Origin: Patescibacteria group bacterium
Lineage (GTDB): Bacteria; Omnitrophota; Gorgyraeia; Gygaellales; Profunditerraquicolaceae
Length of the DNA: 64,000 nt
Assembly: GCA_035506195.1 (NCBI GenBank)
Contig: DATJPV010000048.1
Span: 2,011 to 66,010, forward strand
Direction: 5' to 3'
Below are positions 523 through 26,883 of the stretch, one piece after another. Below the pieces are notes generated by a model. The model was not told the origin of the DNA. It did no database searches and worked only from the letters and a program-made list of their open reading frames with translations. The translations under genes and the position numbers were made by a program. Position 1 is the first letter of the stretch. Every line of letters begins with the position of its first letter.

Positions 523-1566
523 ATGCGCGGCAAAACAAAAACCGTCCTTTTCTCAATACTATTAGCGGGCCTTGCGTCTGCTTTGGCTTTTCTTTTTTCG
601 GAATACGCATACCGCAGCTACTTGCGTTACCGCTACGAGAAAGAAGCGGCAGCCTTCAGCAGCCCTCTTTATATCATTAAGCCGCACACCCTGATCGAGT
701 TTAGCATGAGGCCTAACAGCAGTAGAGAAAACAGGCTGAGCCTCGCGCAGCCAGACAAAAAGTGGAGTTATTCTATTAATGCTGACGGTTTCCGCGGCAG
801 GAATATCGTGCATACAAGAGCAAAGAATAAAAGGATACTGTTCCTGGGGGATTCCTACACGTTCGGCTGGTCTGTGAATGATGACCAGGCATATCCGCAT
901 CAGCTGGAAAACTTACTGCTTCAAAATAACTACGACGCCGAAATTGTCAACCTTGGCGTCCCCGCGTATAACACGGTTCAGGAATATCAGTTATTATGCC
1001 AGAAGTTGGATGTGTACAATCCGGATGTAGTTATTTTGGCATATGTGATGAATGACGCCGAGCCGCAGAACATTGTTCCTCTTGCCCCGGAAATAAAGTA
1101 TCAATGTGCCTCCTCCTGGCTTTTTGAAGACTTTAAATTGCTTCTTTATAAGGTACATTTCCCTTTTCGCAAGACTTTTCTCAGGTCGAATACCTACTGC
1201 ATAGGGCGTAATTATCTTGAAGGATTCGAGCCCGGGAGTCCGAAATGGAAACTCTCGAAGAATGCGTTGAAGGATATCGTGTCTTTTTGCAGGAAAAAGA
1301 ATATTACATTCTTTGTAGCCATCCTGCCGGATGTTACGCAGGATTTCGTCGGGTGCTACCGTTGGCGCCCAATACATCAGGTTGTCTCGAAATGGTGCGA
1401 AGAGTTTGGGGTCGGCTATATAGATCTCTTGCCTTATTTTGCGGGGATTGACCACAAAGATTTCTGGGTTGCCGGAGAAGGGCACCCTAACCCGCACGCG
1501 CATATGAGATTTGCGCAGATTTTGTTTGACTGCATAAGGAGGAACGCCCTTGCCGGCCCTGGATAA
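523..1566 (+). CDS. GDSL/SGNH-family hydrolase with N-terminal TM anchor
   Basis: Block I LFLGDSYTFGW, block II VNLGVPAYNT, block III VMNDAEP and a C-terminal D..GEGHPN are consistent with an SGNH esterase/acyl-hydrolase. There is an N-terminal hydrophobic helix. Confidence 0.65.
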   Translation: MRGKTKTVLFSILLAGLASALAFLFSEYAYRSYLRYRYEKEAAAFSSPLYIIKPHTLIEFSMRPNSSRENRLSLAQPDKKWSYSINADGFRGRNIVHTRAKNKRILFLGDSYTFGWSVNDDQAYPHQLENLLLQNNYDAEIVNLGVPAYNTVQEYQLLCQKLDVYNPDVVILAYVMNDAEPQNIVPLAPEIKYQCASSWLFEDFKLLLYKVHFPFRKTFLRSNTYCIGRNYLEGFEPGSPKWKLSKNALKDIVSFCRKKNITFFVAILPDVTQDFVGCYRWRPIHQVVSKWCEEFGVGYIDLLPYFAGIDHKDFWVAGEGHPNPHAHMRFAQILFDCIRRNALAGPG

Positions 1567-2071
1567 CTCCCTTTTTTATTTCATCAACAATGGTTTAAGC
1601 AACGGTTTTCTGAATACCGTCATGCCGTGGCTCAGCAACATGGGAACCCGGGAATTTCTCATCGTCGCCGGCATTGCCCTGCTTTTCGGCAAAGATAGGA
1701 AATTCAAAATAGCCGGCATCACGTTGATCGTAGGGTTGTTTATCTGCCGCAGCGCCGTGTATTCATTAAAAATGTGGATTGCCAGGCCGCGCCCCTTTCT
1801 CGTCCTTGCACACGTACACGTGCTGGCAAAGGAAATGAGCTTTTCTTTCCCCTCCGGGCACAGCACGAACATCTTCATGGCCGCGGCCCTGCTATCGGCG
1901 TATTCCCGGAAATGCCGCTATTTCTATATACTGGCTTTCGTGGTCGGTATTTCCAGGATCTACCTGGGCGTTCACTACCCTTCGGATGTCCTGGGAGGGG
2001 CATTGTTGGGTATTGCATTAGGAGCAGGCCTGGGATGGATAAGCAGAATTGCGCTAAAACAGGAAAGTTGA
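1550..2071 (+). CDS. PAP2-family phosphatase (undecaprenyl-PP/phosphatidate phosphatase-like)
   Basis: The three PAP2 signature motifs are present: KMWIARPRP, PSGHS and SRIYLGVHYPSD. It is a multi-TM protein. Confidence 0.8.
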   Translation: MPALDNSLFYFINNGLSNGFLNTVMPWLSNMGTREFLIVAGIALLFGKDRKFKIAGITLIVGLFICRSAVYSLKMWIARPRPFLVLAHVHVLAKEMSFSFPSGHSTNIFMAAALLSAYSRKCRYFYILAFVVGISRIYLGVHYPSDVLGGALLGIALGAGLGWISRIALKQES

Positions 2072-2074
2072 TCT

Positions 2075-3190
2075 ATGGAAAGAATAGAGATCACTATCGC
2101 AGGGGCGGGGATTATCGGCCTGGCTGTTGCCTTGGAGCTTTCCCGCAACCATCAGGATATCTTCGTGATAGAGCGGGAATATTCTTTCGGGCAGGGGGTA
2201 AGCTCAAGGAACAGCGAAGTGATCCATGCCGGGATCTATTACCCCAAGGATTCCCTTAAGACGCAAGTATGCGTCGAGGGCAGGCGGATGCTGTATGATT
2301 TTTGCGCAGAGAACCGCATCCCCCACAAAAAAACAGGCAAGCTTATCGTCGCCATCAACGAAACCGAAGCCGGGGACCTGATGGACCTTTTTACGCAAGG
2401 ACAGGCCAACGGCGTAGAGGACCTGCGTTTGCTTTCCAGGGATGAAATAAGAGCGCTAGAACCCCGCGTGCAGGCGCAAGCCGCGATCTATTCTCCTTCC
2501 ACGGGCATCATCGATTCCCACGGCCTGATGAAAAATCTGGCTTCGCAATTCCAGGACAACAAGGGCAACATTACATACAATACAGAAGTCGTGGGGATCG
2601 AAAAAGCCAAAGGCGGTTTCCAGGTTACGGTCAGGGATAAAAGCAAAGAGGCCTTCACATTCTTTACCCGCATTTTTATCAACTCGGCAGGATTATTCTC
2701 GGATAAGATCGCCGTGATGGCCGGCCTGTCGAAGGGTGAATACAAATTGAAATACTGCAAAGGAGACTATTTCCGGGCCCATCCGGCTAAGGCAGGCCTG
2801 ATCAACAGGCTGGTATATCCCGTCCCTAAAAGGAAAGGCGCCGGACTGGGGATACATGCGACGTTGGATCTGGCGGGCGGCCTGCGTTTCGGCCCGGATG
2901 ACGAGTATGTAGAGAAGCTGGATTATAACGTTGACGCATCCAAGTCGAAGGCCTTTCATGAAGCGGTCAGGACGTTCTTGCCTTTCATTGACCGGCAAGA
3001 CCTAAGCCCGGACATGGCAGGTATCCGGCCCAAACTTCAGGGGCCGGGGGAGGGTTTCAGGGATTTTATCATTAAAGACGAAAGCGCCTGCGGCCTTGCC
3101 GGTTTTATAAACCTTATCGGCATCGAGTCCCCGGGGCTTACCGGCGCTTTGTCTATTGCCCGCAAAGTTAAAGGTATGGTCAGGAACTGA
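2075..3190 (+). CDS. lhgO: FAD-dependent oxidoreductase, L-2-hydroxyglutarate oxidase-like
   Basis: It has an N-terminal GAGIIGLAVALEL dinucleotide fold, plus SEVIHAGIYYP and CKGDYFR motifs that match LhgO-family enzymes. Confidence 0.7.
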   Translation: MERIEITIAGAGIIGLAVALELSRNHQDIFVIEREYSFGQGVSSRNSEVIHAGIYYPKDSLKTQVCVEGRRMLYDFCAENRIPHKKTGKLIVAINETEAGDLMDLFTQGQANGVEDLRLLSRDEIRALEPRVQAQAAIYSPSTGIIDSHGLMKNLASQFQDNKGNITYNTEVVGIEKAKGGFQVTVRDKSKEAFTFFTRIFINSAGLFSDKIAVMAGLSKGEYKLKYCKGDYFRAHPAKAGLINRLVYPVPKRKGAGLGIHATLDLAGGLRFGPDDEYVEKLDYNVDASKSKAFHEAVRTFLPFIDRQDLSPDMAGIRPKLQGPGEGFRDFIIKDESACGLAGFINLIGIESPGLTGALSIARKVKGMVRN

Positions 3191-4623
3191 TGCCGCTAAA
3201 GAAAAAGATATCCCTGGTTTTGCTAGGGTCATTTGTGTTTTTTATTTTCCTGGAAGCAGGTTTGCGCTTCGGCGGGTTTGTGTTTGTTTCTTTCCAGGAG
3301 TACCGCAACGCGCGTTCTCTGGCGAAAAAAGGTACGTATCGTATACTCTGCCTGGGGGAATCCACCACCGCCAACCAATACCCGCCTTTCCTTGAGCAGA
3401 TCCTGAACCAGCGCCACACGGGAGTACGCTTCAGCGTCATCGACAAGGGCGTCATCGCCACCGATACCCCGGCTATCCTGCGCCGGTTGAGAGAGAACCT
3501 GGCAGCCTACAAGCCGGATATGGTGGTGGCCATGATGGGGTTTAACGACCGGCGCGTTGCCTACTATGCCGATATACCCGAGGTTCGCATGCCTCTGTTC
3601 CAATATTGCAGAACCTACCGGTTGTTGCGGCTGCTTTACAGCCTCCTGATAAAGAAACGGCATCATGCCCCCCAGCCGCAGGATACTCATGCAGATACCG
3701 CGTTAACGGAGGACACGCGGGAACATAACGAGCTTCTTGCCAGAGAGACGGAATCAAAAAGGACGATCGAGTCAGACCCTCAGAACGAAGAAGCGTATAT
3801 AGAGCTGGGAGGCAGCTATCGCCAGCAGGGTAAATTCTCCCAGGCCGAAGAGTCGCTCAGGAAGGCTATTGAGCTGAATCCTCAAAACGAGCGCGCATAC
3901 GTCGAACTGGGGCGGTTGTATCGCGCCGCAGGCAGGTTCTCCCAAGCCGAGGATTTGTACCAGAAGGCCATCGTGCTAAACCCCAAGAATGAGCGGATCT
4001 ATATTGAGTTAGGATGGCTCTATAGGACTCGAGGCAAGCTTTCCCAGGCAGAAGCCGCGTTCAAAAAGGCCATCGAGGCAAACCCTCGCAACGAGCGCAT
4101 GTATGTCGAGTTGGGATGGAGTTATCGGACCCAGGGCAGGTTCTCTCAGGCGGAGGATTTGCTCAAGCAAGCCGTCGCGCTGAAGCCTCTCAACGATGAT
4201 ACTTATGGCGATCGCGCCTACGGAGCTCTCTCGGTCTTATACGAAGAAACGGGTAAACCGGGACTGGCCAGGGCATATGCCGAAAAGGCGGAAGGGTTGC
4301 GGTCGAAGACGCCCAATGCTCTTACGGCTCAGAGCTACCAGAGACTGAAAGATATTTTGGACACACAGGGCATACGCCTGGTATGCGTACAGTATCCCAT
4401 GCGTAACATAGGGCCGTTGAAGGCGATTTTCCGTAGCGGCCAGGAAGGGGTCGTGTTCGTAGACAACGAGAAGATATTCAGGGATGCCCTCAAGAAAGAC
4501 GGATACAACGCATATTTTAGAGACGCATTCGGCGGCGACTTCGGCCACTGCACCGATAAGGGTAATAAGCTCCTGGCGGAAAATATCGCCAACGCCATTC
4601 TTAAAAAGGTATTTCATAAATAG
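3190..4623 (+). CDS. TM-anchored SGNH hydrolase with a 5xTPR array inserted between catalytic blocks III and V (paralog A)
   Basis: There is an N-terminal TM helix. Block I is CLGESTT, block II DKGVIATDT and block III MMGFNDR. Then come ~5 TPR units (AYxELGxxYRxQGKFSQAE), then block V GGDFGHCT. The ATG overlaps the lhgO stop. Confidence 0.6.
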   Translation: MPLKKKISLVLLGSFVFFIFLEAGLRFGGFVFVSFQEYRNARSLAKKGTYRILCLGESTTANQYPPFLEQILNQRHTGVRFSVIDKGVIATDTPAILRRLRENLAAYKPDMVVAMMGFNDRRVAYYADIPEVRMPLFQYCRTYRLLRLLYSLLIKKRHHAPQPQDTHADTALTEDTREHNELLARETESKRTIESDPQNEEAYIELGGSYRQQGKFSQAEESLRKAIELNPQNERAYVELGRLYRAAGRFSQAEDLYQKAIVLNPKNERIYIELGWLYRTRGKLSQAEAAFKKAIEANPRNERMYVELGWSYRTQGRFSQAEDLLKQAVALKPLNDDTYGDRAYGALSVLYEETGKPGLARAYAEKAEGLRSKTPNALTAQSYQRLKDILDTQGIRLVCVQYPMRNIGPLKAIFRSGQEGVVFVDNEKIFRDALKKDGYNAYFRDAFGGDFGHCTDKGNKLLAENIANAILKKVFHK

Positions 4624-4664
4624 AGCGCCTATCATTTCGCAGGGGGCATGGTATAATTTAACAA

Positions 4665-6089
4665 ATGAAACCGCTCAGAACGGAAATATCTCTGCTCATA
4701 TTCGGGCTGTTCTTGTTCCTTCTGCTCCTTGAGGCGGCCTTGCGCCTGGCCGGCTTTGCCTTTTGGTCTTTACAGGAATACAGGAACCTGCAGTCTATGC
4801 GGCAGAAGGGGACCCGGCGTATCATGTGTGTAGGAGAATCTACTACCGCAGGCCAGTACCCTCCTTTTCTGGAAGAAATACTTAATCAGCGCAGCGGCAT
4901 AAAGTTCAGCGTAATCGATAAAGGCGTAGTCGGCACGACAACGTCGGTCATATTGGCTGAATTGGAAGCAAACCTCGATCGCTACCGTCCCGATATGGTA
5001 GTTGCCATGATGGGGATAAACGACTGGGGGCCGCATATCCCTTATGAAGCGGCTACCGCTTCAAAGGCCGCGCTTTTCTTCAGGTCTTTGCGTACGTACA
5101 AGTTGGCCAGGCTCCTGTGGCTGCACATCGTGACTAAAACCAGAGAGGCCGCCGGAACGCCTTCGTATATCGCGCAGGGAATGTGCTATCGCAGCCAGGG
5201 GAAATTTGCTCAGGCCGAAGAGGCCTTCAGGAAGGCCTTGGAAGCGGATCCTAAAAACCGCGATGCGTATCTTATACTCGGGCACCTGTACCGGGAACAA
5301 AGCAAGTTCTCTCAATCGGAAGAGGCCTTCAAGAAGGTCATCGCGCTGAACTATCAGGACGACGGTTTATATATCGGGTTGGGATGGACCTATGAGGGCC
5401 AGGGCAGTTTTGCTCAGGCCGAAGAGGCCTTCAGGAAGGCCATCGAGTTAAACCCCCAAAACGAGGGCGCATACATCGGGCTGGGATGGAGCTATCGCCA
5501 GCAGGGTAAATTCTCCCGGGCGGAGGATGCCTTCAAAAAGGCCGTCGAGTTGAGTCCCAAAAACGACGGCGCGTATGTTGAACTAGGGCTGTCTTATCGA
5601 GCCGAAGGAAAGATTTCCCAGGCCGAAGGCTCGTACAGAAAGGCTATCGAGCTGAACTCTTACAACGACCGCGCGTACGCAGCGCTGGCGGTGGTCTATG
5701 AAGAGACAGGCAGGCCCGCGTTGGCAAAGGAATACGCCAAGAAGGCGGAAGAATTACGATATGCGTATTATGATCCCCGCACGGCGGCCAACTACCGCAA
5801 GCTCAAGGAGATCCTGGATAAAAGAGGCATACGATTTGTATGCGCCCAGTACCCCATGCGCAGCATCGGGCCGCTGAGAAGGATATTCAAGGACCAGGAA
5901 GGCACCATATTCTTTGTGGACAACGAAAAAATATTCAGGGATGCGGTTAAGAAAGACGGCTACAATGCCTATTTCGTAGATATGCTTGGCGGCGATTTCG
6001 GCCATTGCACCCCTAAGGGCAACAGGCTCTTGGCTGAAAATATCGCCGATGCCGTCATGCAAGGCTCATGCGTACATAAAACGCCTTAA
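4665..6089 (+). CDS. TM-anchored SGNH hydrolase with internal TPR array (paralog B)
   Basis: It has the same architecture and near-identical motifs (CVGESTT, MMGINDW, GGDFGHCT) and 5-6 TPR units. Confidence 0.6.
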   Translation: MKPLRTEISLLIFGLFLFLLLLEAALRLAGFAFWSLQEYRNLQSMRQKGTRRIMCVGESTTAGQYPPFLEEILNQRSGIKFSVIDKGVVGTTTSVILAELEANLDRYRPDMVVAMMGINDWGPHIPYEAATASKAALFFRSLRTYKLARLLWLHIVTKTREAAGTPSYIAQGMCYRSQGKFAQAEEAFRKALEADPKNRDAYLILGHLYREQSKFSQSEEAFKKVIALNYQDDGLYIGLGWTYEGQGSFAQAEEAFRKAIELNPQNEGAYIGLGWSYRQQGKFSRAEDAFKKAVELSPKNDGAYVELGLSYRAEGKISQAEGSYRKAIELNSYNDRAYAALAVVYEETGRPALAKEYAKKAEELRYAYYDPRTAANYRKLKEILDKRGIRFVCAQYPMRSIGPLRRIFKDQEGTIFFVDNEKIFRDAVKKDGYNAYFVDMLGGDFGHCTPKGNRLLAENIADAVMQGSCVHKTP

Positions 6090-6102
6090 GCCGAACTTCC
6101 TT

Positions 6103-7035
6103 ATGAAGACAAAATTCCATCAGAGATATCCTCGCTATCTGCCTTTTTATTATATCGTCTTTTTGATCTTGCGAAAGATCATCCGGCAGCGTGCGTTGCG
6201 GCGCTTGGAGGCAAGGACCGCCAAGAGCCCTCTTGCCGGGGAATGCGAGGATGGGCCGGGCCATTGGGCCCGGGAAGATAAACCAAAGAACCCTGTCGGC
6301 GCCATAAATAAAGCCGCATTCTGGATCGACGATGATTTTAAGGAGCCGGCGATCAGGGAGTGTATAGATAACATTGCCGCCTTGAGGGCATCGTTGAATG
6401 CAAGGCGCCTGCGTTATTGCAGCCCGGCCGGGACATTCATTCCGGGAACCTATCTGCCACGCACGTCAAAAACAAAAATGTGGGAAAATGCCTGGGCTAT
6501 CCGTCATCTGGGCGTCAGCCCGACCGATGCAGTGCTTGACCTGGGGGGCGCCTCAACCCTTTTTAGCTTTTATTTAGCCGGTATGGGATGCAGCGTGCGC
6601 GTGATCGATAATGATTGGGGAAACTGCGGGACGATCTATAATACGAATTACGTAGGCAAGAAAATGCATTGGGATATCAGGGCCTACGATCATGACCTGG
6701 CCAGGCCCCTGCCTTTTAAAGACGCTTCTTTCGATGCGGTATTCTCCATATGCGTTTTTGAACATCTTTTCTGCGGGACGAGGCGGCAGGTAATGCGGGA
6801 GATCGGACGGGTGCTCAAACCCGCGGGGAGGCTCGCCCTGACGTTTGATTATGACCCTCCCCGCGCCTGCGGGTTATCCGACAAGGGTTTGCGTTTTGCC
6901 TACAGGGATAAGATCGAGCGCGATATCATTCAGCCTTCCGGCCTAGAGGTCATGGGCAACCAGCAGTGGCTCGACGCCTTTCCTGAGAAGCCATTCTTGG
7001 GAGCGCTGTTTCTCAAAAAGAGGCCCGCGGCATGA
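6103..7035 (+). CDS. class I SAM-dependent methyltransferase
   Basis: Motif I is VLDLGGASTLFSFYLAGMGCSVRVID, and post-motif II/III are AVFSICVFEHL and LKPAGRLALT. The start is placed at the ATG at 6103, after the paralog B stop. The track ORF 5986-7035 extends upstream through the overlap and is not supported. Confidence 0.7.
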   Translation: MKTKFHQRYPRYLPFYYIVFLILRKIIRQRALRRLEARTAKSPLAGECEDGPGHWAREDKPKNPVGAINKAAFWIDDDFKEPAIRECIDNIAALRASLNARRLRYCSPAGTFIPGTYLPRTSKTKMWENAWAIRHLGVSPTDAVLDLGGASTLFSFYLAGMGCSVRVIDNDWGNCGTIYNTNYVGKKMHWDIRAYDHDLARPLPFKDASFDAVFSICVFEHLFCGTRRQVMREIGRVLKPAGRLALTFDYDPPRACGLSDKGLRFAYRDKIERDIIQPSGLEVMGNQQWLDAFPEKPFLGALFLKKRPAA

Positions 7036-7904
7036 ATAATAAAGAGCTGCCGTTTGCTTCGGTTATTATCTGTACACAGAACAGGAAAGAATACCTCCAG
7101 AATTACTCTCTGCGCACCGCCCTGGAATTGGCATATCCCCGTTACGAGGTGATCGTTGTCGTTGACGGCTCGCAGGATAGCACCGATGATTTTCTTGCTT
7201 CTCTCCAGGGCCGGACAGCTAACCTTAAGGTTGTGCGTCACCCTATTCCCAGAGGGGTAGCGTACGCAAGGCAGGCAGGGGTCCAGCGGGCAGCGGGCCA
7301 GATCATCGCGTTTACCGATGACGACTGTATGTTGGAAAAAAACTGGTTAAAGGAACTGGTGCTTATGTATCTGGAAGATAACGAGCTGATGGCCGCCGGA
7401 GGCCTTACGTATGAGGCGGATACGGATAAGCCCTGCTCATCGCCCGAAGACATATTCGGTTTTAATATGTCTTTTCGCAGGGCCGTTTTCGACAGGTTTT
7501 CCTTTGACGCCAATTTATTTTTCCACAGGGCCCCTATGCACGAAGAGACGGATCTTATCGCAAGGATGCGGCATCACGGCTATAAGACAGGGTATACGAG
7601 AAAGGCGATAGTAAGGCATTTCCCCGCTTCCGCATCATACCGCAGGATCAACAAAAGGATCGGCGATCACCTGAACTGGATTTACATGAAAGCAAAGGCA
7701 ACGTCTTTGCCGCGTTACTACTGCGCGTTTTTCAAGAGATCCCGCCAGATGTATTCCAAGATCAAGGACCTGCATCGGGACGGGGTTATTTCTTTTCTGG
7801 ATACATGGCGCAAGTTAGCTTGGGTTAATTACGTGTTGCTTTTTGAGCTGCCCGTTAAGGCAAAGATTGCCCACAGGCAAGAAGAAAAAAAGCTCAAGAC
7901 ATGA
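7032..7904 (+). CDS. glycosyltransferase family 2
   Basis: It has a GT-A fold N-terminus (ASVIICTQNRKEYL, VIVVVDGSQDST) and a DxD-like TDDDC motif. Start and stop overlap the neighbouring genes. Confidence 0.75.
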   Translation: MNNKELPFASVIICTQNRKEYLQNYSLRTALELAYPRYEVIVVVDGSQDSTDDFLASLQGRTANLKVVRHPIPRGVAYARQAGVQRAAGQIIAFTDDDCMLEKNWLKELVLMYLEDNELMAAGGLTYEADTDKPCSSPEDIFGFNMSFRRAVFDRFSFDANLFFHRAPMHEETDLIARMRHHGYKTGYTRKAIVRHFPASASYRRINKRIGDHLNWIYMKAKATSLPRYYCAFFKRSRQMYSKIKDLHRDGVISFLDTWRKLAWVNYVLLFELPVKAKIAHRQEEKKLKT

Positions 7905-9520
7905 CGCCGCTGAAAACGAAAATATCACTGATCCTGTTCGGATTCTTGGTGTTTGTCCTTCTTCTTGAGGCAGCCTTGCGCCTGGCAGGGTTTACCTTAT
8001 TGTCTATTCAGGAGCACCGTAACCTGCAATCCCTCAAACATAAGGGATCCTACCGCATCGTGTGTTTGGGCGAGTCTACCACTGTAGGCCAGTATCCGTC
8101 CCTGCTCGAAGAGATCCTCAACCGGCGCAACATCGGCATGCGGTTCAGTGTCATTGACAAGGGGGTAGTGGGCACTACGACCGACGCTATCATGTCTAGG
8201 CTCCTGCCGAACCTTGCCGCTTATACCCCGGATATGGTAATTGCGATGATGGGGGTTAATGATCGGCAGTTGATGTGCTATAAAGGCATTTCTGCTGTAT
8301 ACACAAGGCTATTCTTGCGTTCAAGGGTTTTCCGCCTCATGTTTTTTGTGTATGAGCGTGTTTCCGAAAAAATAAAGGAAGTCGCGGAATCCGGCCGTGG
8401 TTTTAACTATGGCCAGCTGGAGCTATCCGGCCTGCAACAGAGCCCCTTGCCGTATGACGCAGACCCTCAGCCTCAAGATGTCGATACCTGCCTTCGTTTA
8501 GCGCAGGCCTTTTTAAGCCGGGGCAACTTCTCCAGGGCCGAAGGCGCCTTCAGGAAAGCCATAGAGCTTGAATCGCAAAGCGGGCGTGCGCACCGTCAAT
8601 TCGAGCGGTTCCGTCAGAACTATCCGCGCATTGAGGATACGCTCAAGAAAGCCATCACAGCACATCCGCAGGAGGAGGCTGCGTATATAGAACTGGAGTG
8701 GTTGTATGGTAAGCCGGCAGGCCTGGCCCGGGCCGAAGATACGTTTAAAAAACTTATCGCGCTAAACCCCCGAAACGAACACGCCTATATTATGTTAGGT
8801 TCACTGTATGGGAAAGCGCACCAGCTCTCTGGGGCCCAAGAGTTGTTGGAAAAGGCCGTTGCGCTGGCGCCTCAAAACGAGCGCGCATATGTTCCGCTGG
8901 GGCGGAACTACCGAACCCAGGGCAAGTTTGCTTTGGCCGAGGAGGCATTTCAAAAGGCCATCGCACTGAAACCCCAAAACGAGCGCGCATATACGGAGTT
9001 GGGGTGGAGCTACCAGGCCCAGGGCAAGTTCTCGCAAGCCGAGGAGGCATTTCAAAAGGCCGTCGCGCTGAACCCTCAAGACGAGCGTCCGTATGAAGCG
9101 CTCTCGAAAGTATACGAAAATATAAACAAGCCGGAGTTAGGAAGAGCGTATGCTGAAAAAGCGGCTAACTTGAGGGCAAGAAGATTCGAAGCCGGTACCA
9201 TTCAGAACTACCGGAGGCTTAAGGATATCTTAAGCAAAAAGGGTATACGCCTGGTTTGCGTCCAGTATCCCCTGCGTCCCGTGGGGGCATTACAAGAAAT
9301 ATTCCAGGGCCGCGCAGAAGGGATCGTTTTTGTAGATAATGAGCGGATATTTAAAGACGCCGTTGAAAAAGACGGCTATGATGTGTATTTCGATGATACG
9401 TTCGCAGGCGATTTCGGCCACTGCACCGCTAAGGGCAACCGGCTTTTAGCTGAAAATATCGCCGATACGATCGTGCGTCGGGTATTTACTCCTGATCATG
9501 CATCCCATGCCGCGTTTTAA
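7901..9520 (+). CDS. TM-anchored SGNH hydrolase with internal TPR array (paralog C, longer TPR insert)
   Basis: It has CLGESTT, MMGVNDR, ~7 TPR units and AGDFGHCT. Confidence 0.6.
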   Translation: MTPLKTKISLILFGFLVFVLLLEAALRLAGFTLLSIQEHRNLQSLKHKGSYRIVCLGESTTVGQYPSLLEEILNRRNIGMRFSVIDKGVVGTTTDAIMSRLLPNLAAYTPDMVIAMMGVNDRQLMCYKGISAVYTRLFLRSRVFRLMFFVYERVSEKIKEVAESGRGFNYGQLELSGLQQSPLPYDADPQPQDVDTCLRLAQAFLSRGNFSRAEGAFRKAIELESQSGRAHRQFERFRQNYPRIEDTLKKAITAHPQEEAAYIELEWLYGKPAGLARAEDTFKKLIALNPRNEHAYIMLGSLYGKAHQLSGAQELLEKAVALAPQNERAYVPLGRNYRTQGKFALAEEAFQKAIALKPQNERAYTELGWSYQAQGKFSQAEEAFQKAVALNPQDERPYEALSKVYENINKPELGRAYAEKAANLRARRFEAGTIQNYRRLKDILSKKGIRLVCVQYPLRPVGALQEIFQGRAEGIVFVDNERIFKDAVEKDGYDVYFDDTFAGDFGHCTAKGNRLLAENIADTIVRRVFTPDHASHAAF

Positions 9521-11234
9521 GAATATTCTAAGCGTCAGCATCTTTGTGTTTCTGGTGCTACTTACCTGTGCGGCCAGTTATGTGTGGCTGGCGCGCGATA
9601 ATACCCCTCCGTACGGAATCACCCCTCCTTTGCAAAGCATGCGCTTTTACCTGGCCTGGCAAGATCATGGTTTCAGGTTCTCCGATTTCGCCGCGGTTTT
9701 TGAACCGCAATACCCTCCGTTGACGCACCTTCTGTACACCGGGTACTTTCTTATCTGGGGGCTGCACACCGGCAAAGAGATGCTTGTCAATACCCTGTTT
9801 CTGGTTATCGCTCTCATCGCGCTCTATGGATTGGCCAGGGCCTTGTATGGCGAGCTTGTTGCGGTCGCAGCGGTGGCGCTCTTTTTGTCTTTCCCCGGCA
9901 CGCTTGCCTATTCCCGGCGCGGCTTCACTGAATTTGCCGTTATGGGCATGGTAACTTTAAGCATCTGGCTGCTTGTGAGAACCGAATATTTTTCGCGTCG
10001 CGCATACGCGGTGCTTTTTGGGCTGGCTTTGGGCCTGACCGCACTGACCAAATGGAGTTTCCTTCCGTTTGTCGCCGGGCCGCTGCTGGTGGTTTCCGGA
10101 TACGGATGCCTGCGCAAAGATCCTTCCCGGGCGAAACGGTACTTTCTTCTGTCTATCCTCATCGCGCTTGCCCTAAGCCTGCCATGGTACATTCCTCATA
10201 TGCGGGATGCGTGGATGCGTTTCCATATCGATAAACTCGACGCCTCACCCAGGGATTTCCTATTCACCAAAGCAAACCTTGCGGCATTCCTGCATAACTG
10301 CCGGTCTTATTTTCGGGAAAGCATTGCGGTGCCCTCGGTAAAAGCGCACATGGACCTCAATTACCTGCTTATCTTCCTGTGCGCCGGATCTTGGCGCCTT
10401 GCGTACCGCTGTTTCCATCGGGCAGGCCGCGCTGCCGTTTCCCCTGGGGCATTGGTACTTTTTTTATGGATATCCGTACCTTTCGTTACGCTCTGCCTGC
10501 CCGTTTTTACGGGAATACGCCATCCTTCGCACCTGCTGGCTGTCCTGCCCGCCTGTGCGCTTGCCTTAAGCGTTACGCTCTTACGTATCCGGCCCGCCAG
10601 CGCCAGGATTCTATTTCTTTGCGCTACCGCCGCCGTTGCATTACCCTACTGGTACATTAATCTCTGTGCGCCTTTCCTGCGGCAGCCTGCGCAAAAGAGC
10701 CTGCCCTTACAGATAGAGACGTCTTTTTCGCTGCGCCATCCGTTGTCCAGCAGGCTTCGGCTGGCAAGAGTCCTCCTTACGGACCTCCAGAGGGTTTCCC
10801 TGTTGCCTAGCCAGGAAAACTGGCGGCATAAGGACATACTGGATTTTATAGTCGAGGATCGCGCCAAAGACGCGCGCAAAGAAAAACCCGCGGTATTGCT
10901 GGTAGGGACCTCTCAGTTGTTTCGCTATCGCCAATTTGAGTATTGCAATCTGCGGATGCACGATAAGGTCATGCTTGTCGATGCCTTCCATACCCGCCTT
11001 GAGTTTTACGCGAATCTAGCCGCTTTGCATGACGCTATCTTTGACTCTCCCTTTGATTATATTGTGGTAAGGGACGGGGTGCGCTTAAATCCTCTCACGA
11101 GGGAAGCCTTTGCCCAGCAAGCCACGCTTGCCGTCCTGGAGCGCCGGCAAGAAGAGTTCCGCCGCCTCTATGTAGCGGCGATGCAGTTTGGCCTTCCGGA
11201 CGGAAGCCGGGCAATAGTCTACAGGAGGCTTTAG
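9498..11234 (+). CDS. GT-C-fold membrane glycosyltransferase, ArnT/PMT (GT39/GT83)-like
   Basis: It has ~10-12 predicted TM helices. The N-terminal region (YTGYFLIWGL...LTKWSFLPF) resembles 4-amino-arabinose/mannosyl transferase family proteins. There is a soluble C-terminal domain. Confidence 0.5.
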   Translation: MHPMPRFKNILSVSIFVFLVLLTCAASYVWLARDNTPPYGITPPLQSMRFYLAWQDHGFRFSDFAAVFEPQYPPLTHLLYTGYFLIWGLHTGKEMLVNTLFLVIALIALYGLARALYGELVAVAAVALFLSFPGTLAYSRRGFTEFAVMGMVTLSIWLLVRTEYFSRRAYAVLFGLALGLTALTKWSFLPFVAGPLLVVSGYGCLRKDPSRAKRYFLLSILIALALSLPWYIPHMRDAWMRFHIDKLDASPRDFLFTKANLAAFLHNCRSYFRESIAVPSVKAHMDLNYLLIFLCAGSWRLAYRCFHRAGRAAVSPGALVLFLWISVPFVTLCLPVFTGIRHPSHLLAVLPACALALSVTLLRIRPASARILFLCATAAVALPYWYINLCAPFLRQPAQKSLPLQIETSFSLRHPLSSRLRLARVLLTDLQRVSLLPSQENWRHKDILDFIVEDRAKDARKEKPAVLLVGTSQLFRYRQFEYCNLRMHDKVMLVDAFHTRLEFYANLAALHDAIFDSPFDYIVVRDGVRLNPLTREAFAQQATLAVLERRQEEFRRLYVAAMQFGLPDGSRAIVYRRL

Positions 11235-11324
11235 GCGCCCGTAATAAAATGTATTGCGCAAGGTCGTATTTAGACTATACTTGAACAAAGAGAAAGGTTT
11301 TAGCAAGGGATCAGGAAGGGCTCC

Positions 11325-12365
11325 GTGCAAATGAAAAGGTATGCATATCTGTTGGTGTTCTGCGCGCTGGCCTTGGCGGTATTCATCTTGGCGCCTCATC
11401 ATAAAAGACCGCGCAATATTATTCTTATAGGATGGGATGCCGCCTCGCGGGGCACTGTCCGAAGCCTCCTGGCGCAGGGCAGGCTCCCCAACCTTAAGGC
11501 ATTGGTCTCCCGGGGGGCATTAGTCGATATCGACGCGCAGAGAAGGACGGATACCGCAGCCGGCTGGGCGGAGATATTAACCGGCTATCCGCCCGAAGAT
11601 ACCGGTGTCTGTTGCAATGCGCATTATCAGGCGATACCTCAGGGATACACCGTTTTTGAGCGCCTGAAAGATTTTTTCGGGAAAGAGAATTTTGTGACCC
11701 TGGCGGCCATCAGCAAAAAACACCACATGGATTGCACTCCTGCGCAGAAATATGACAGGATGGAGGATGTGCCGCAAGAACACCAGGGTGTCGTAAGGCC
11801 TGACGGCCGGGGCGTATATTTTCCCGGCGCGCCGTTTGCCAATGCGAAGGGCACAATGGATGTGTTCGCCAATGACCTGCGCAGTAATGACAGAGTACTG
11901 AAGGTAGCGCTGAAGCTGTTGGAGCAGTATCGTAACAAGCCGTTCTTTTTCTTTATACATTTCGGCGATATCGATGGTGCGGGGCATCAGTACGGAGGCA
12001 TCTCTCCGCAGGTAAACGACGCGATTATTTCATGCGATACTTGCTTGGGTGCGTTAATGCAGAAATTAAAAGAATATGGGATATACGACAAGACGCTGCT
12101 GTATATCACCGCCGACCATGGGCTTGATAAGGATGTAGTCTGTCCCGGGCATCACAACGCCGCCCTTATTTTCCTGGCAACCAATAATGCACGGGTCATC
12201 CGGCGCGGCACCAGGATCGACATTACCCCTACCATACTCGATGATTTCGGCATAGACCTAGGAAAGATCAGGCCGGAACTTCCAGGCAGGGCCTTGACCA
12301 ATTTGAAGCGATGCAGGTATTGCATAAGGGTGCATGAGGGCTCCGGCGGCGAGGAAGGGCAATAG
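11325..12365 (+). CDS. alkaline-phosphatase-superfamily enzyme, type I phosphodiesterase/nucleotide pyrophosphatase (PF01663)-like, membrane anchored
   Basis: It has an N-terminal TM and the metal-ligand motifs GWDAASRGT (Asp + Ser/Thr nucleophile region), FGDIDGAGHQYG (D..GH.YG) and TADHGLD. Confidence 0.65.
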   Translation: MQMKRYAYLLVFCALALAVFILAPHHKRPRNIILIGWDAASRGTVRSLLAQGRLPNLKALVSRGALVDIDAQRRTDTAAGWAEILTGYPPEDTGVCCNAHYQAIPQGYTVFERLKDFFGKENFVTLAAISKKHHMDCTPAQKYDRMEDVPQEHQGVVRPDGRGVYFPGAPFANAKGTMDVFANDLRSNDRVLKVALKLLEQYRNKPFFFFIHFGDIDGAGHQYGGISPQVNDAIISCDTCLGALMQKLKEYGIYDKTLLYITADHGLDKDVVCPGHHNAALIFLATNNARVIRRGTRIDITPTILDDFGIDLGKIRPELPGRALTNLKRCRYCIRVHEGSGGEEGQ

Positions 12366-13974
12366 CGTGGATGTCTTTTTGGCGGCCATATGCCTGGTTA
12401 TGCTGGTTCTCATCGGATCAAGAGAGGGCTGGGGGAAGGTATTAAAGATTACAGCTGCCTGGTTCCTGTTTTCGGTCGGTATGATGGAGATCTTCCTGCT
12501 TTCCGGCCACCAAAGGCACTTCCGTATTTGGCTCCCCAGTTATTTCAGCGTGTTCGGCCCTCTGCAATGGTGCGCCTGGGGCATCGGGCTTATTACTTAT
12601 TATGTAATAGGGGCAAAGACCAGGATAGCCTGCTGGATCAGGAGGCTCGCCTTGCTGTTGCTTGTGTGCATACCCATCCCCGTAATTTTCTTGTTCATCT
12701 TTCGGTTTGGGGTAAATGTGCTATATTGGGACCAGTGGCGGATAGTCCCTATCCTGGCGAGGTATCTTAACGGCACCCTGCAGTTCTCCCACCTTTTTGA
12801 AGGCATTGTTGAGCAGCGCGAATTTTTTGGCACGGTGATCACGCTTGTCACGGCCCGCCTGACTCACTACAATACCTGCGTTGAGATGTATGTGAATGCG
12901 TGCATATTATTGTTGTCATTCTGCGTAGTCTTGGCGTCTCTCAAAGAGCGCGCTCCCCTTGTTGGGAACCTGTTTTTTCTTGCGCCGATCTCCTATTTGA
13001 TGCTGGGCCCGAATCAAATCGCCAATATTTTGTATGGGGCCGGGCTTAGCTGGGTTTTGGTCCATACCTGCGCCATCGCCAGCCTCTATTTTCTTTATTC
13101 GGCCACGAAGCAGCCCGCCAGGCGCAAGGCGACCTGTACCCTCATCGTAGCCATGCTCTTGGCTACCGTCGCCACCTTTTCCTTGTCGATGGGCATGTGC
13201 GTATGGTTTGCGGGGTGTTTTTTAGCAGGCCGCCGGCCTCGGCCCGTCATCGGTAGCTGGGCGGCCCTGGGCTTGTTGGAATCGCTGTTCTATTTTCATA
13301 CCCCGGCGTTCCTTGCGCAGATGCTCGCAAAACCGCTTGCCGGCGCAGCCTCCCTGCCCGCCGCCAACCACGTTGGCTACCTAAGTTTTTTCCCTTTATT
13401 CCTTGGTTCTGCGGTAACCGGAAGATTCAATTCTTTGGCTTGGGGCATCTCGTTGTTGTCATTGTCGGCCGTTTGTCTGGCCTTGCTATATGCATATGGC
13501 CAATGGAGGCAGAACGCGCTGTGGTTAAGTATCCTGCTATTCGCGACCTGCGCAACCCTGTTGATCTTTGTAGGAAGGGTTTGCGCAAGGGCAGACCTGG
13601 CGGAAGGGCTTGCGCACAGGTATAAGATCTTTGCAATCCTTATCGTTGCCTCGCTGTATATGCTGATGTTGAATTTGCGCTTCGCCGTGAGGGGCAATTT
13701 TGTCGTTACCGGCTCATACGCCGTGCTTACCTGCCTGATCGTTATCGGCGCTCCCGTTTCTTTTTTCAATAACCTTGCCTATGCGCAAGTACAAAAAAGC
13801 CTTTACCAAAAAGCCGCGTCTGTGCTGGTTGACTACGAGGTTCAATCAGACGATGTCTTGCAGGCCCTTTACAAAGAACCGCAGTTTGTCAGAAAGAACG
13901 CGGCAGTGCTCAAGAAACTCAAATATAACGTTTTCAGCGTGCAACCGCAAAACATGCCGAAAGGAGCCCCATGA
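12334..13974 (+). CDS. polytopic integral membrane protein (>=12 TM), unknown function
   Basis: It has a long run of hydrophobic helices and no soluble catalytic motif that I recognise. It is bracketed by two NPP-family paralogs. Confidence 0.4.
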   Translation: MRAPAARKGNSVDVFLAAICLVMLVLIGSREGWGKVLKITAAWFLFSVGMMEIFLLSGHQRHFRIWLPSYFSVFGPLQWCAWGIGLITYYVIGAKTRIACWIRRLALLLLVCIPIPVIFLFIFRFGVNVLYWDQWRIVPILARYLNGTLQFSHLFEGIVEQREFFGTVITLVTARLTHYNTCVEMYVNACILLLSFCVVLASLKERAPLVGNLFFLAPISYLMLGPNQIANILYGAGLSWVLVHTCAIASLYFLYSATKQPARRKATCTLIVAMLLATVATFSLSMGMCVWFAGCFLAGRRPRPVIGSWAALGLLESLFYFHTPAFLAQMLAKPLAGAASLPAANHVGYLSFFPLFLGSAVTGRFNSLAWGISLLSLSAVCLALLYAYGQWRQNALWLSILLFATCATLLIFVGRVCARADLAEGLAHRYKIFAILIVASLYMLMLNLRFAVRGNFVVTGSYAVLTCLIVIGAPVSFFNNLAYAQVQKSLYQKAASVLVDYEVQSDDVLQALYKEPQFVRKNAAVLKKLKYNVFSVQPQNMPKGAP

Positions 13975-15011
13975 TGAAACGTACATATGTGTATATACTG
14001 GCTGTCTGCGTATCGATCGCTGCGGCATGCGCCTTGGCGGTTACGTGTGTTACCGCGGGTATCGGCAAGAGGCCGCGCAGCATCATTCTTGTGGGCTGGG
14101 ACGCTGCCTCCCGGGACACCGTCCAGGGGCTCATGGCTCAAGGCAGGCTTCCGAACCTTGCGGCGCTGGTTTCCGGCGGCGCGTTCGTCGATATCGATGT
14201 CCAGAGAATAACCGATACTAAAGCCGGCTGGACGGAGATATTGACCGGCTATCCTCCGGAGATAACGGGTACGCACGACAATCACATGTATCAGCAGATA
14301 CCGCAGGGGTATACCGTTTTCGAGCGCCTGCAGGATTTTTTCGGGAAAGGCAATTTCATTACCGTAGCAGTGATCAGTAAGAAGCTCCACATGGATTGCT
14401 TTCCTCCGCAGAGATATGACAGGATCGAGGATGTGCCGGAAGATTATCAAAGCACCGTCAGGACCGAGCTTAATCCGGATGGCCAGGGATGCGTATATTT
14501 TCCCGGCGAGCCGTTCGCCGGCATAAAAGACAAGATAGACGTATTTGTGAATGACCTGCGTTCCAATAGTAACACCCTGCAGGAGGCGTTGCGGCTCCTT
14601 GAGAAGTACCGCCAGAAGCCGTTTTTCTTCTTCGTGCATTTTGGCGATATCGACGGCGCCGGGCACAAATTTGGAGTAAACGCCCCGCAGGTGGCTAATG
14701 CGGTTATCTCATGCGACGCCTGTTTAGGCGCCCTGGTGCAGAAGCTGAAGGAATACAAGATATACGATACGACGAGGATCTATGTCACTGCCGATCACGG
14801 GCTTGATACAATAGGCAATAGCCATCGCGACGCGCCTTTTATTTTTCTGGCGACCAATAATCGCAAGGTTATACGGGACGGCAGGAGGATAGATATCGCC
14901 CCTACCATACTTGAAGATTTCGGCGTAGACTTAAGCAAGATCAAGCCGGCGCTTCCCGGCTGGTCTTTGACCAAGATCAAAAGGTGCAAATATTGCGTAA
15001 GAAAGCGGTAA
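13971..15011 (+). CDS. alkaline-phosphatase-superfamily enzyme (NPP/PF01663-like), paralog of 11325-12365
   Basis: It aligns colinearly with the upstream paralog (VGWDAASRDT, FGDIDGAGHKFG, TADHGLD). It has an N-terminal TM. Confidence 0.65.
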   Translation: MMKRTYVYILAVCVSIAAACALAVTCVTAGIGKRPRSIILVGWDAASRDTVQGLMAQGRLPNLAALVSGGAFVDIDVQRITDTKAGWTEILTGYPPEITGTHDNHMYQQIPQGYTVFERLQDFFGKGNFITVAVISKKLHMDCFPPQRYDRIEDVPEDYQSTVRTELNPDGQGCVYFPGEPFAGIKDKIDVFVNDLRSNSNTLQEALRLLEKYRQKPFFFFVHFGDIDGAGHKFGVNAPQVANAVISCDACLGALVQKLKEYKIYDTTRIYVTADHGLDTIGNSHRDAPFIFLATNNRKVIRDGRRIDIAPTILEDFGVDLSKIKPALPGWSLTKIKRCKYCVRKR

Positions 15012-15820
15012 GAATAATAACCGGCAGCTACGGCTGCCTGTGCGCATTGTTGCTGGTGGCCGGCTGTGCGGGATTGCCCAGCATAAGGGTACCGCAGAAG
15101 GCATACGATGCCGCTATCCCCATACCGGACGCGCGCCTGCCGGATTACGAAAAACTGACCTATGAAATCAGGTGGCTCGGCCTGCGCGTGGGCACGCTTA
15201 CTGCCTCCATAGTCGAAAGGAAACAGTTCCGGGACAGGGAAGTATATGTCCTTGAGGCCACCGTGAAGACAAGCGCGTTCTTTTCGAGCATCTACAAGAT
15301 AGAGGACCGTTTTGTTTCCTATGTGGACGCGCAAAAGTTGTATACCATACGGCACGAGGTATACCGCAGGGACGGCGCATACAAAAAGGACGCCGTCACC
15401 GAGTTCGACCAGGAAAGCCATAAGGCCCATTTCAAGAATTCCCTGGATATGTCGGAGAAAACCTTTGATATACCCGCGGGGGTCCACGATATCTTGAGCG
15501 CCTGTTATTATTTCATGCTTTTGCCGCTGAAGGTAGGGGATAAGATCGAGTATTCCGTATGCAATAACGAGACCAATTACCAGTTCCTCGGCCTTATCCA
15601 GCCTAAGGTATTGATACGGGTGCCTGCTTTGGGCAGGAAGGAGAGCGAGGCGTTTCTCATTCAGCCTTACGCCAAGCTTAAAGGGGAGAAGGTGGATAAA
15701 GGCAACGTAAGCGCGTATTTCAGCTGCGAAAAAAGAAGGCTGCCCTTATTGGCTACCGTGAAGGGCCCGGTATTCACGGAGGTTACTATCGTGCTTTCCA
15801 AGATAGAGAACCGGCAGTGA
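14984..15820 (+). CDS. putative lipoprotein (possibly DUF3108-like)
   Basis: There is a lipobox LLVAGCAG after a signal peptide and no enzymatic motifs. The DUF3108 resemblance is only suggested by an N-terminal YEIRWLGLRVG motif. Confidence 0.4.
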   Translation: MQILRKKAVRIITGSYGCLCALLLVAGCAGLPSIRVPQKAYDAAIPIPDARLPDYEKLTYEIRWLGLRVGTLTASIVERKQFRDREVYVLEATVKTSAFFSSIYKIEDRFVSYVDAQKLYTIRHEVYRRDGAYKKDAVTEFDQESHKAHFKNSLDMSEKTFDIPAGVHDILSACYYFMLLPLKVGDKIEYSVCNNETNYQFLGLIQPKVLIRVPALGRKESEAFLIQPYAKLKGEKVDKGNVSAYFSCEKRRLPLLATVKGPVFTEVTIVLSKIENRQ

Positions 15821-15885
15821 CGCACGGCTGAATTGTATACTATTTTTGGAAGAAAGTGGTATAATAGGCAAAAAGGAGACCCGGA

Positions 15886-16056
15886 ATGATCGAGAGAAGC
15901 GAATACAAAGGTAAGCCGTTGATCGTCCTCAAGAGAGGCGAAGACGATAAGTTCCCTTTTTCTTTTGGCGTCACCAAGGCAAAGCTCATACTCGAGAATA
16001 TCGAGGAGATCAAGAAATTCGTGGAAGAGAACGCTCAGGACGCCCCGCAGGGATGA
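15886..16056 (+). CDS. small conserved-looking ORF (56 aa), unknown function
   Basis: This ORF is not in the track (<60 aa). A good SD AAAGGAGA lies 7 nt upstream, and an extended -10 GTGGTATAAT sits at 15857-15865. The sequence is MIERSEYKGKPLIVLKRGEDDKFPFSFGVTKAKLILENIEEIKKFVEENAQDAPQG. Confidence 0.4.
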   Translation: MIERSEYKGKPLIVLKRGEDDKFPFSFGVTKAKLILENIEEIKKFVEENAQDAPQG

Positions 16057-17898: not shown

Positions 17899-17899
17899 G

Positions 17900-18391: not shown

Positions 18392-18441
18392 AGGGGAACT
18401 TTTTCCCTGATGCGCATGTCTAAGATGACGGGAGGAAAAAA

Positions 18442-21288: not shown

Positions 21289-21291
21289 CGC

Positions 21292-21645: not shown

Positions 21646-21740
21646 CCCCTTAGCTGGCCCGCATCTTTCCGGCATTACATCCTTACAAGTTTGGATTGAC
21701 TTATCCCGCCGCAAATAGTATTATGGGGTATGAAAAGGAG

Positions 21741-22472: not shown

Positions 22473-22480
22473 ACTGCGCA

Positions 22481-24496: not shown

Positions 24497-24517
24497 GAAC
24501 CTGCGCCGGGGAATTGT

Positions 24518-26866: not shown

Positions 26867-26876
26867 TGGTATAATA
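26866..26876 (+). promoter_or_regulatory. extended -10 element GTGGTATAAT predicting a leaderless transcript for the 26884 gene
   Basis: A TGnTATAAT lies at 26867-26875 and the ATG at 26884, so a TSS at ~26882 is expected. There is no SD. Confidence 0.35.
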
Positions 26877-26883
26877 TAAGAAT

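Follow-up and report, generated by a model that had tools for sequence, protein, structure and literature searches.

Gene content of the locus

The locus described here occupies positions 523-15820 of a 64,000-nucleotide stretch of bacterial DNA from contig DATJPV010000048.1 (this whole stretch is referred to as the window) and carries thirteen + strand open reading frames (ORFs), at whose junctions the spacing varies between a 32-nt overlap and a 90-nt gap. An earlier note had proposed that the locus is one operon whose products decorate a single envelope glycopolymer. Its domain calls were reproduced by profile searches against Pfam and NCBIfam, and the ATGA and TGATG start/stop overlaps that it reported were found at the junctions of flavoenzyme and SGNH-TPR1, methyltransferase and GT2, GT2 and SGNH-TPR3, and 12TM and NPP2. 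Overall, the best explanation of the data is that an Omnitrophota-like bacterium carries here a composite locus for envelope modification, rather than one linear pathway (estimated probability about 0.5); a conserved core accompanied by variable accessory genes is a plausible arrangement. The following features were identified (profile matches in brackets; aa, amino acids).

76-519, +: 3' end of an SGNH-TPR paralog (528 aa in full); its C-terminal SGNH half aligns, including GDFGHCT
523-1566, +: GDSL/SGNH esterase, membrane-anchored, 347 aa, accessory (Lipase_GDSL_2, 4.2e-15)
1550-2071, +: PAP2 lipid-phosphate phosphatase, 173 aa (PAP2, 2.8e-23, 82.5 bits)
2075-3190, +: FAD-dependent oxidoreductase, LhgO/L2HGDH-like, 371 aa, accessory (DAO, 1e-59)
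3190-4623, +: SGNH-TPR paralog 1, 477 aa, with anchor, SGNH blocks I-III, TPR array and SGNH block V
4649-4657, +: extended -10-like element TGGTATAAT, candidate internal promoter, 7 nt upstream of the ATG at 4665
4665-6089, +: SGNH-TPR paralog 2, 474 aa (profile match and alignment)
6103-7035, +: class I S-adenosylmethionine methyltransferase, 310 aa, accessory (Methyltransf_11, 1.9e-12)
7032-7904, +: GT2 glycosyltransferase, 290 aa, accessory (Glycos_transf_2, 1e-25)
7901-9520, +: SGNH-TPR paralog 3, 539 aa, overlapping the GT-C start by 23 nt
9498-11234, +: GT-C glycosyltransferase, PMT_2 (GT39/GT83-like), 578 aa, of which about 170 aa form a soluble C-terminal domain
11325-12365, +: NPP1, membrane-anchored NPP-type enzyme of the alkaline-phosphatase superfamily (Phosphodiest, 6e-25; start of the gene caller at 11331)
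12334-13974, +: 12TM protein with twelve transmembrane (TM) helices and a GT-C-like fold (AlphaFold2 and Foldseek; the start may lie at about 12379)
13971-15011, +: NPP2, paralog of NPP1 with 66% identity (Phosphodiest, 3.5e-25)
14984-15820, +: DUF3108 lipoprotein, lipobox LVAGC (DUF3108, 2.9e-25)
15857-15865, +: conserved extended -10-like element at the start of the next transcription unit, in a block near-identical in the relative's contig L004

Conservation of the core in the nearest relative

Gene order was compared with the nearest relative, which is represented by contigs L008 (71.7 kb; the same organism also provided L009) and L004. Contig L008 ends within the N-terminal part of a GT-C with 64% identity to the window protein, and L004 runs from a GT-C C-terminus through an NPP gene, a 12TM gene, a second NPP gene and a DUF3108 gene to a 56-aa ORF and a pilin-like gene. 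Identities to L004 were 70% for NPP1, 63% for the 12TM protein, 75% for NPP2 and 73% for the DUF3108 protein; the duplication that gave rise to NPP1 and NPP2 is older than the split from this relative. Upstream of its GT-C gene, L008 carries genes for an SGNH-TPR protein, two small ORFs, a PAP2 protein (46%), an Smr protein, a cNMP-binding protein, two SGNH-TPR proteins, a DUF2284 protein and a further SGNH-TPR protein. Together, the core genes, the 56-aa ORF and the pilin-like gene are kept in the relative at 46-89% identity. The GT-C and NPP1 genes overlap in the relative and are separated by a 90-nt gap (11235-11324) in the window.

Within 20 kb upstream of the GT-C gene in L008, no homologs of the flavoenzyme, the methyltransferase or GT2 were detected, and the GDSL esterase had no ortholog there, showing weak similarity to the SGNH halves of SGNH-TPR proteins only. 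If L008 and L004 are joined, the conserved part would comprise PAP2, the SGNH-TPR genes and the series GT-C-NPP-12TM-NPP-DUF3108, the other four genes being variable. The linkage across relatives by which the earlier note wished its reading to be judged was thus seen for the core, in one relative, whereas GDSL, flavoenzyme, methyltransferase and GT2 genes are absent there, and only about half of the cluster is kept together. A scan of the GTDB species-representative genomes with the GT-C alone yielded no relative, and no close relative was found in any such scan.

A GT-C and a second protein with a GT-C-like fold

The GT-C glycosyltransferase matched the PMT_2 profile (PF13231) with 30.6 bits (E 4.7e-7), above the curated cutoff of 26.1. 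The assignment, which the earlier note had left to profile searches, thereby stood. The homologs P0002 and P0003 also match PF02366, and the NCBI name for the gene is GT39. The protein has about nine hydrophobic segments, and an alignment of eight sequences showed no invariant acidic residue in loop 1. It had no NCBIfam match and no PDB sequence match, and only a handful of homologs were found among 5.8 billion clusters. The nearest of them (53%; L001-L003) form tandem groups of two or three copies, and downstream of these lie three B12-radical-SAM genes and a gene for asparagine synthase (AsnB). An SGNH-TPR array in an Omnitrophica genome (L050) is preceded by a methyltransferase gene and six B12-radical-SAM genes, and the location of both GT-C copies and this array beside B12-radical-SAM genes looks like a recurring association.

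The 12TM protein had no Pfam, NCBIfam or PDB sequence match. An exhaustive profile search gave a family of 2,593 cluster representatives at E ≤ 1e-3, with 124 at E ≤ 1e-30, and a scan of 60 members returned no convincing curated family (four Pfam and three NCBIfam models matched one member each, at E 1e-4 or weaker). Named members are listed as "hypothetical protein" of Eremiobacterota, of Paludibacter or under the label "Patescibacteria group". An AlphaFold2 model computed from a 60-sequence alignment reached a pLDDT of 90 and a pTM of 0.89, and the model from a 2-sequence alignment was unusable (pLDDT 36.6). Foldseek searches of the PDB with the former model retrieved STT3A, ArnT, AftA, Pmt4 and PglB with probabilities of 0.94-1.0 and TM-scores of 0.33-0.43, and GT-C enzymes were the only fold class with a TM-score ≥ 0.3. 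Residue Asp133 (YWDQW) is kept in 59 of 60 members and opens the first loop, between a TM helix and two short helices. The scan of GTDB species-representative genomes with five 12TM sequences, which consisted of two peptide patterns only, found two archaeal loci, one in Methanothrix sp. (L010) and one in Methanoregulaceae (L011). In Methanothrix, the homolog follows a gene in which GT2 is fused to LPG_synthase_TM and sits between two NDP-sugar epimerase genes, which is the usual company of a GT-C. Because of the fold of the model, the conserved Asp133 and this gene context, the 12TM protein is read as a putative second GT-C-fold transferase.

The window protein and its ortholog P0010 are the only members found to be flanked by NPP genes, and each carries about 100 extra N-terminal residues that form three helices. 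Other relatives stand alone, in tandem or beside an SGNH gene and have no NPP genes. One such interval looks like a variable cassette: contigs L049 and L052 share flanks (GAF regulator and rpoN) that are 87-90% conserved, and between these flanks L049 holds two tandem 12TM paralogs and L052 an SGNH-family gene with one 12TM paralog. The matches of the GTDB scan are methanogens, and a described Omnitrophota predator feeds on Methanothrix/Methanosaeta (10.1101/2023.11.21.568195), which may be a coincidence.

The NPP pair and the DUF3108 lipoprotein

Both NPP proteins scored 89 bits against PF01663 (cutoff 23). Thr77 aligns with the nucleophilic Thr of ENPP3, the DxDxxGH and DHG metal-ligand motifs are intact, and each protein has a single N-terminal helix. 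The architecture of EptA, PptA or PIG-N was not found in either, as both lack a multi-TM domain and have Phosphodiest, not an EptA-type model, as their best profile. A metagenome scan returned 35 further loci (L012-L046) with NPP relatives at 32-55% identity, sometimes in tandem. None of these loci has a GT-C, 12TM, DUF3108, PAP2 or SGNH-TPR gene nearby, and a hidden Markov model search of the proteins neighbouring the NPP relatives with 12TM, GT-C and SGNH-TPR profiles gave no match. Sulfatases account for 15 of 67 neighbours, and SGSH_C, lectin-like (Laminin_G_3) and deacetylase genes are also present. Because the neighbours are enriched in sulfatases and none of the relatives lies near a GT-C, hydrolysis by the NPP enzymes would be at least as likely as group transfer. 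The description of the pair as NPP-family and phosphotransferase-like in the earlier note was thus borne out for the family, by profile and active site; a transfer reaction did not find support, given the one N-terminal helix and the hydrolytic contexts of the relatives.

The DUF3108 lipoprotein had no PDB sequence match. Its family consists of outer-membrane proteins with the YmcC fold (PMC4364669).

SGNH-TPR proteins and the GDSL esterase

The SGNH-TPR proteins combine one N-terminal hydrophobic helix, the motifs GESTT, DKG and MMGxND (blocks I-III), 34-residue TPR units and the motif GDFGHCT (block V). The TPR array varies in size and is inserted between SGNH blocks III and V. Blocks I (GxS), III (GxND) and V (DxxH) of SGNH hydrolases are present in the paralogs and in Omnitrophota homologs, and paralog 1 keeps the GESTT, GxND and DFGH motifs. 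Matches to Lipase_GDSL_2 reach 29-40 bits, around the cutoff of 32.9. As the catalytic Ser, Asn and Asp-x-x-His are conserved, the proteins look like active esterases or acyltransferases. Of the four SGNH-TPR genes counted by the earlier note, three are complete within 523-15820. The remaining one is truncated by the start of the window, which leaves a fragment at 76-519. Its complete gene lies at 943-2529 of contig L047 (ERZ27256505, 94,913 bp), which is the same contig in another assembly at ENA and begins 2,010 nt upstream of the window. The family is large (at least 120 homologs, all above 550 bits among the matches listed), often with several members per contig. The idea that large genes without a Pfam match in SGNH-TPR arrays of other contigs encode GT-Cs was rejected, as these genes proved to be additional SGNH-TPR paralogs.

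A 102-nt tandem repeat, the length of a TPR unit, was located at 5319-5572 in paralog 2. In paralog 3, the window (8850-9070) has 99 nt, or one TPR unit, fewer than L047 (10962-11080), so that the product measures 539 aa in the window and 572 aa in the ENA assembly, the contigs being otherwise 99.9% identical. This difference reflects either a repeat-number polymorphism or an assembly collapse in the 102-nt tandem repeat.

SGNH-family genes were coupled to GT-C-fold genes in three cases. SGNH-TPR3 and GT-C overlap by 23 nt in the window, an SGNH-TPR gene stops 12 nt before the GT-C gene in L008, and in L052 the gene of a shorter family member shares 4 nt with that of a 12TM paralog. The last contig stems from the same sample as the source, and a gene product in it bears the same NCBI "Patescibacteria group" label. 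The GDSL esterase at 523-1566 has a single N-terminal hydrophobic helix and scored 59 bits against the NCBIfam model LA_2486-like, far under the cutoff of 300.

PAP2 and the accessory enzymes

The best NCBIfam matches of the PAP2 protein were undecaprenyl-diphosphatases, every one of them under its cutoff, and no NCBIfam equivalog was reached (SepP 82.7 bits, cutoff 250; PRK11837 49.8, cutoff 229; LpxE 22, cutoff 177). The flavoenzyme fell short of the LhgO equivalog (L-2-hydroxyglutarate oxidase) with 247 bits against a cutoff of 299 and coverage of residues 5-275 only; its nearest solved structure is 3dme (9.9e-89). It is accordingly described as LhgO-like by sequence and is not assigned as LhgO. 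The start of the methyltransferase at 6103 was taken from the gene call in L047. No NCBIfam equivalog was reached by GT2, for which no TM helix was predicted and whose best matches are GT2 enzymes that do not use a carrier.

Transcription units, borders and host

The four start/stop overlaps favour co-translation. The exact 9-mer TGGTATAAT occurs in three copies in the 64 kb (4649, 15857 and 26867), where about 0.5 would be expected (our own estimate, 128 kb / 4^9). Each copy is on the + strand, in a short gap directly ahead of a start codon, and a copy with one mismatch is located at 28640. The spacing to the starts at 4665 and 26884 is 7-8 nt, which suggests leaderless transcripts at these two predicted starts. 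Downstream of the DUF3108 gene, the intergenic block TGAATTGTATAC...GTGGTATAAT and a ribosome-binding site are almost identical in L004, and the 56-aa ORF follows. A generic sigma-70 scan found promoter-like sites to be no commoner than in shuffled sequence, and terminator-like sites were about 1.9 standard deviations above shuffled sequence; neither scan picked out an operon boundary. The copy of TGGTATAAT at 4649 and the 90-nt gap in front of NPP1 point to two or more transcription units. The single operon of the earlier note is therefore unlikely, and the right border at 15820 appears sound, as judged from these sequence elements. The left border at 523 is arbitrary, because the gene run continues upstream in L047 with the full 528-aa SGNH-TPR paralog and part of another up to the contig end. 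The co-directional run that had been emphasized is real in that all genes lie on the + strand, but nearly every gene of the 64-kb window does so too and the orientation is therefore not special to 523-15820.

The GC content is 0.49-0.54 in the cluster and 0.52-0.58 downstream. The idea that 523-15820 is a foreign island was dismissed, as its base composition is not distinctive. No Rfam RNA families were detected in the window.

Organism-named homologs of SGNH-TPR are, among the matches listed, from Candidatus Omnitrophota/Omnitrophica with the exception of six entries, five of which are labelled "Patescibacteria group bacterium" (the source metagenome-assembled genome and a sibling contig) and one only "bacterium". 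Because these homologs are nearly all from Omnitrophota, the host is treated as a probable Omnitrophota-like bacterium. "Patescibacteria group bacterium" is also the NCBI label of the source genome and is probably wrong. The extracytoplasmic function (ECF) sigma factor, lipopolysaccharide (LPS)-type enzymes and a GC content of 54% are a poor fit to Patescibacteria.

Downstream of the cluster, the 56-aa ORF (15886-16056; L004 4816-4986) and the type IV pilin-like gene (16133-16570, N_methyl; L004 5086-5514) are the best conserved of the locus (about 89% identical to their counterparts in the relative), and each is preceded by an extended -10-like element that is conserved as well. They are followed at 17347-18903 by genes for the ECF sigma factor, a zf-HC2 anti-sigma factor and Metal_resist/LTXXQ proteins. 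The same trio is found at 17603-20674 of L051, an Omnitrophota contig without the GT-C core, about 6 kb downstream of an SGNH-TPR gene. A second glycan-related stretch extends over 20239-27822 and encodes a GT2 (20239-21288), a 683-aa signal-peptide protein without Pfam match (22445-24496), a 782-aa protein without Pfam match (24518-26866) and a 5-TM protein (26884-27822). The 782-aa protein has a multi-TM N-terminal domain with an FHFDD motif, followed by a TPR run of about nine units as counted from the 102-nt tandem repeat, an architecture that we take to resemble TMTC-like GT-C-TPR proteins.

Proposed function and alternative explanations

N-terminal anchors are present on the GDSL, SGNH-TPR and NPP proteins and a lipobox on the DUF3108 protein. 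The envelope-modification reading of the earlier note is retained in so far as most products are membrane-anchored or periplasmic proteins of envelope type and the core is syntenic; its single pathway and single operon are not. The scheme we favour builds on the folds and families, catalytic residues, membrane anchoring, gene coupling and partial synteny described above. The core would most likely act at the periplasmic face of the inner membrane, with a lipid-linked or envelope glycoconjugate as the presumed acceptor. The two GT-C-fold proteins, by their families, would use polyprenyl-phosphate donors for sugar transfer. PAP2 and the two NPP enzymes, which are tethered to the membrane, may make, trim or recycle phosphate-ester linkages, a family-based assignment that accommodates either direction of the NPP reaction. 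The SGNH-TPR proteins, with their single-helix anchor, would by analogy with their family remove or transfer O-acyl groups, and the inserted TPR array might serve for docking. The proteins of the core may form a complex. The GDSL esterase, the LhgO-like flavoenzyme, the methyltransferase and GT2 would be strain-variable accessories that may alter the precursor or its decoration, and the DUF3108 lipoprotein could be the outer partner.

Several observations weigh against this composite locus. Only one close relative was found, and its two contigs come from two samples and were joined by inference. The likeness of the 12TM protein to GT-Cs rests only on the modelled fold (TM-score about 0.4) and on context, and an hhalign comparison of the 12TM family with the PMT_2-type family gave a probability of 12%, which is not evidence of homology. 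The column of residue 161 (consensus HNEHR) holds His in 57 of 60 members and Gln in two, the window protein and its ortholog P0010. The cluster contains neither a flippase nor a membrane-anchored polyprenyl-phosphate sugar synthase. The occurrence of NPP relatives among sulfatases suggests hydrolases that have no link to a GT-C. Finally, SGNH-TPR genes form arrays of at least ten in a row (L005) or of seven (L050) elsewhere with no glycosyltransferase genes, and the family is therefore lineage-typical and multi-copy, not a marker of the cluster.

Four alternatives were considered, in falling order of probability. The proposal of the earlier note, in which all thirteen genes form one operon and one pathway by which sugar, acetyl, methyl and phospho substituents are attached to one and the same lipid-linked or wall glycopolymer, draws on the tight spacing, the four start/stop overlaps and the coherent set of envelope-type enzyme families. 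It is unlikely, as the GDSL, flavoenzyme, methyltransferase and GT2 genes have no counterpart in the locus of the relative and more distant homologs of every component occur in unrelated contexts, unlinked from the rest. The candidate internal promoter at 4649, possibly another one in the 90-nt gap before NPP1 and the co-directionality of the whole window also speak against it.

Alternatively, the NPP and SGNH-TPR proteins could act outwards and strip phosphate and acyl groups from envelope polymers of prey or host, with the glycosyltransferases as bystanders. The company of the NPP relatives at 32-55% identity (sulfatase, SGSH_C, lectin-like and deacetylase genes) and the great expansion of the SGNH-TPR family, whose organism-named members are from Omnitrophota among the matches listed, are in keeping with such a role. 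It would also fit the predatory lifestyle reported for some members of the phylum (10.1101/2023.11.21.568195). The proteins in question carry N-terminal membrane anchors and not obvious secretion signals, the two NPP genes enclose a GT-C-fold gene and overlap with it in an order that is conserved, and in three cases an SGNH gene is coupled to a GT-C-fold gene; we consider this explanation unlikely.

The target could also be a protein. In this case the GT39-like GT-C, the second GT-C-fold protein and the NPP enzymes would glycosylate a secreted or surface protein or add phospho-forms to it, the type IV pilin-like protein encoded just downstream being the most obvious target. Precedents are TfpW, a GT-C encoded beside pilA in Pseudomonas, and PptA, the pilin phospho-form transferase of the alkaline-phosphatase superfamily in Neisseria. 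PMT-type GT-Cs include protein O-mannosyltransferases, in line with the NCBI name GT39, and the pilin-like gene and the 56-aa ORF are kept beside the core at 89% identity. Against this, each of the two has its own promoter-like element, a 312-nt gap separates the DUF3108 and pilin-like genes, and adjacency in two genomes is weak evidence; we consider protein modification unlikely. Least probable of all, and no more than speculative, is an undescribed periplasmic machine of NPP-12TM-NPP-DUF3108, SGNH-TPR and GT-C in which the 12TM protein, lacking the His, would be the lipid-binding partner of the NPP enzymes in a split analog of EptA, PptA or PIG-N that places phospho-linked groups onto LPS or pilin in Omnitrophota.

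The composite locus with a conserved core thus remains the preferred explanation. Omnitrophota are uncultivated, very small and partly predatory, and the locus provides a handle on their envelope chemistry in three respects: a conserved five-gene core in which two GT-C-fold proteins are paired with two NPP enzymes, a GT-C-like family (about 2,600 cluster representatives) that occurs in bacteria and methanogens and had no match to any Pfam or NCBIfam model, and a large lineage-typical SGNH family split by a TPR array. Nothing here overturns current knowledge, but the locus supplies targets on which the construction or remodelling of the cell surface in these bacteria can be tested.

Comparison with known systems

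The cluster resembles several known systems in part and fits none of the lipid A, three-component, arabinan and acyltransferase/SGNH systems. With the lipid A and LPS-core toolkit (ArnT, EptA, LpxE/LpxF) it shares a PAP2 protein, a PMT_2-family GT-C, alkaline-phosphatase-superfamily enzymes and the expected location at the periplasmic face. Unlike this toolkit, it reaches no NCBIfam equivalog (the GT-C has no match, and the 22 bits for LpxE stay below the cutoff of 177) and has neither an ArnC-like anchored GT2 nor an ArnE/F-like flippase. Its NPP enzymes use a Thr nucleophile and one anchor helix, in contrast to the 5-TM and sulfatase-type architecture of EptA.

In three-component periplasmic glycosylation (GtrA/GtrB/Gtr*, CsbB-GtcA-YfhO), a GT2 and GT-C-fold proteins likewise occur together, and the distant Methanothrix relative of the 12TM protein directly follows a GT2 fused to the flippase-like LPG_synthase_TM. 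The cluster differs in that it contains no GtrA, ArnE/F or LPG_synthase_TM gene, in that its GT2 has no TM helix and in that this GT2 is absent from the nearest relative.

The mycobacterial arabinan genes comprise Rv3806c, the PAP2 gene Rv3807c, the flavoenzyme DprE1 and the Aft/Emb GT-Cs. The cluster resembles them in that its PAP2 gene adjoins an FAD oxidoreductase gene and is accompanied by GT-C transferases. Here, however, the flavoenzyme is of the DAO/LhgO type and not of the DprE1 type and is missing in the relative, and there is no UbiA-like prenyl-phosphoribosyl transferase.

Pairs of a membrane acyltransferase and a periplasmic SGNH protein are represented by PatA/PatB, OafA and AlgI/AlgJ/AlgX. 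As in these pairs, a multi-TM gene is translationally coupled to a gene for a periplasmic SGNH-fold protein; unlike them, the membrane partner is GT-C-like and not of the MBOAT or AT3 type, and the SGNH domain contains an inserted TPR array.

GT-C-TPR fusions are known as the eukaryotic TMTC O-mannosyltransferases and their bacterial look-alikes. In contrast to these fusions, the TPR units of the cluster lie inside a separate SGNH protein. The likeness consists in the association of a TPR array with a PMT-like GT-C, and the window encodes, in addition, the multi-TM and TPR protein at 24518-26866.

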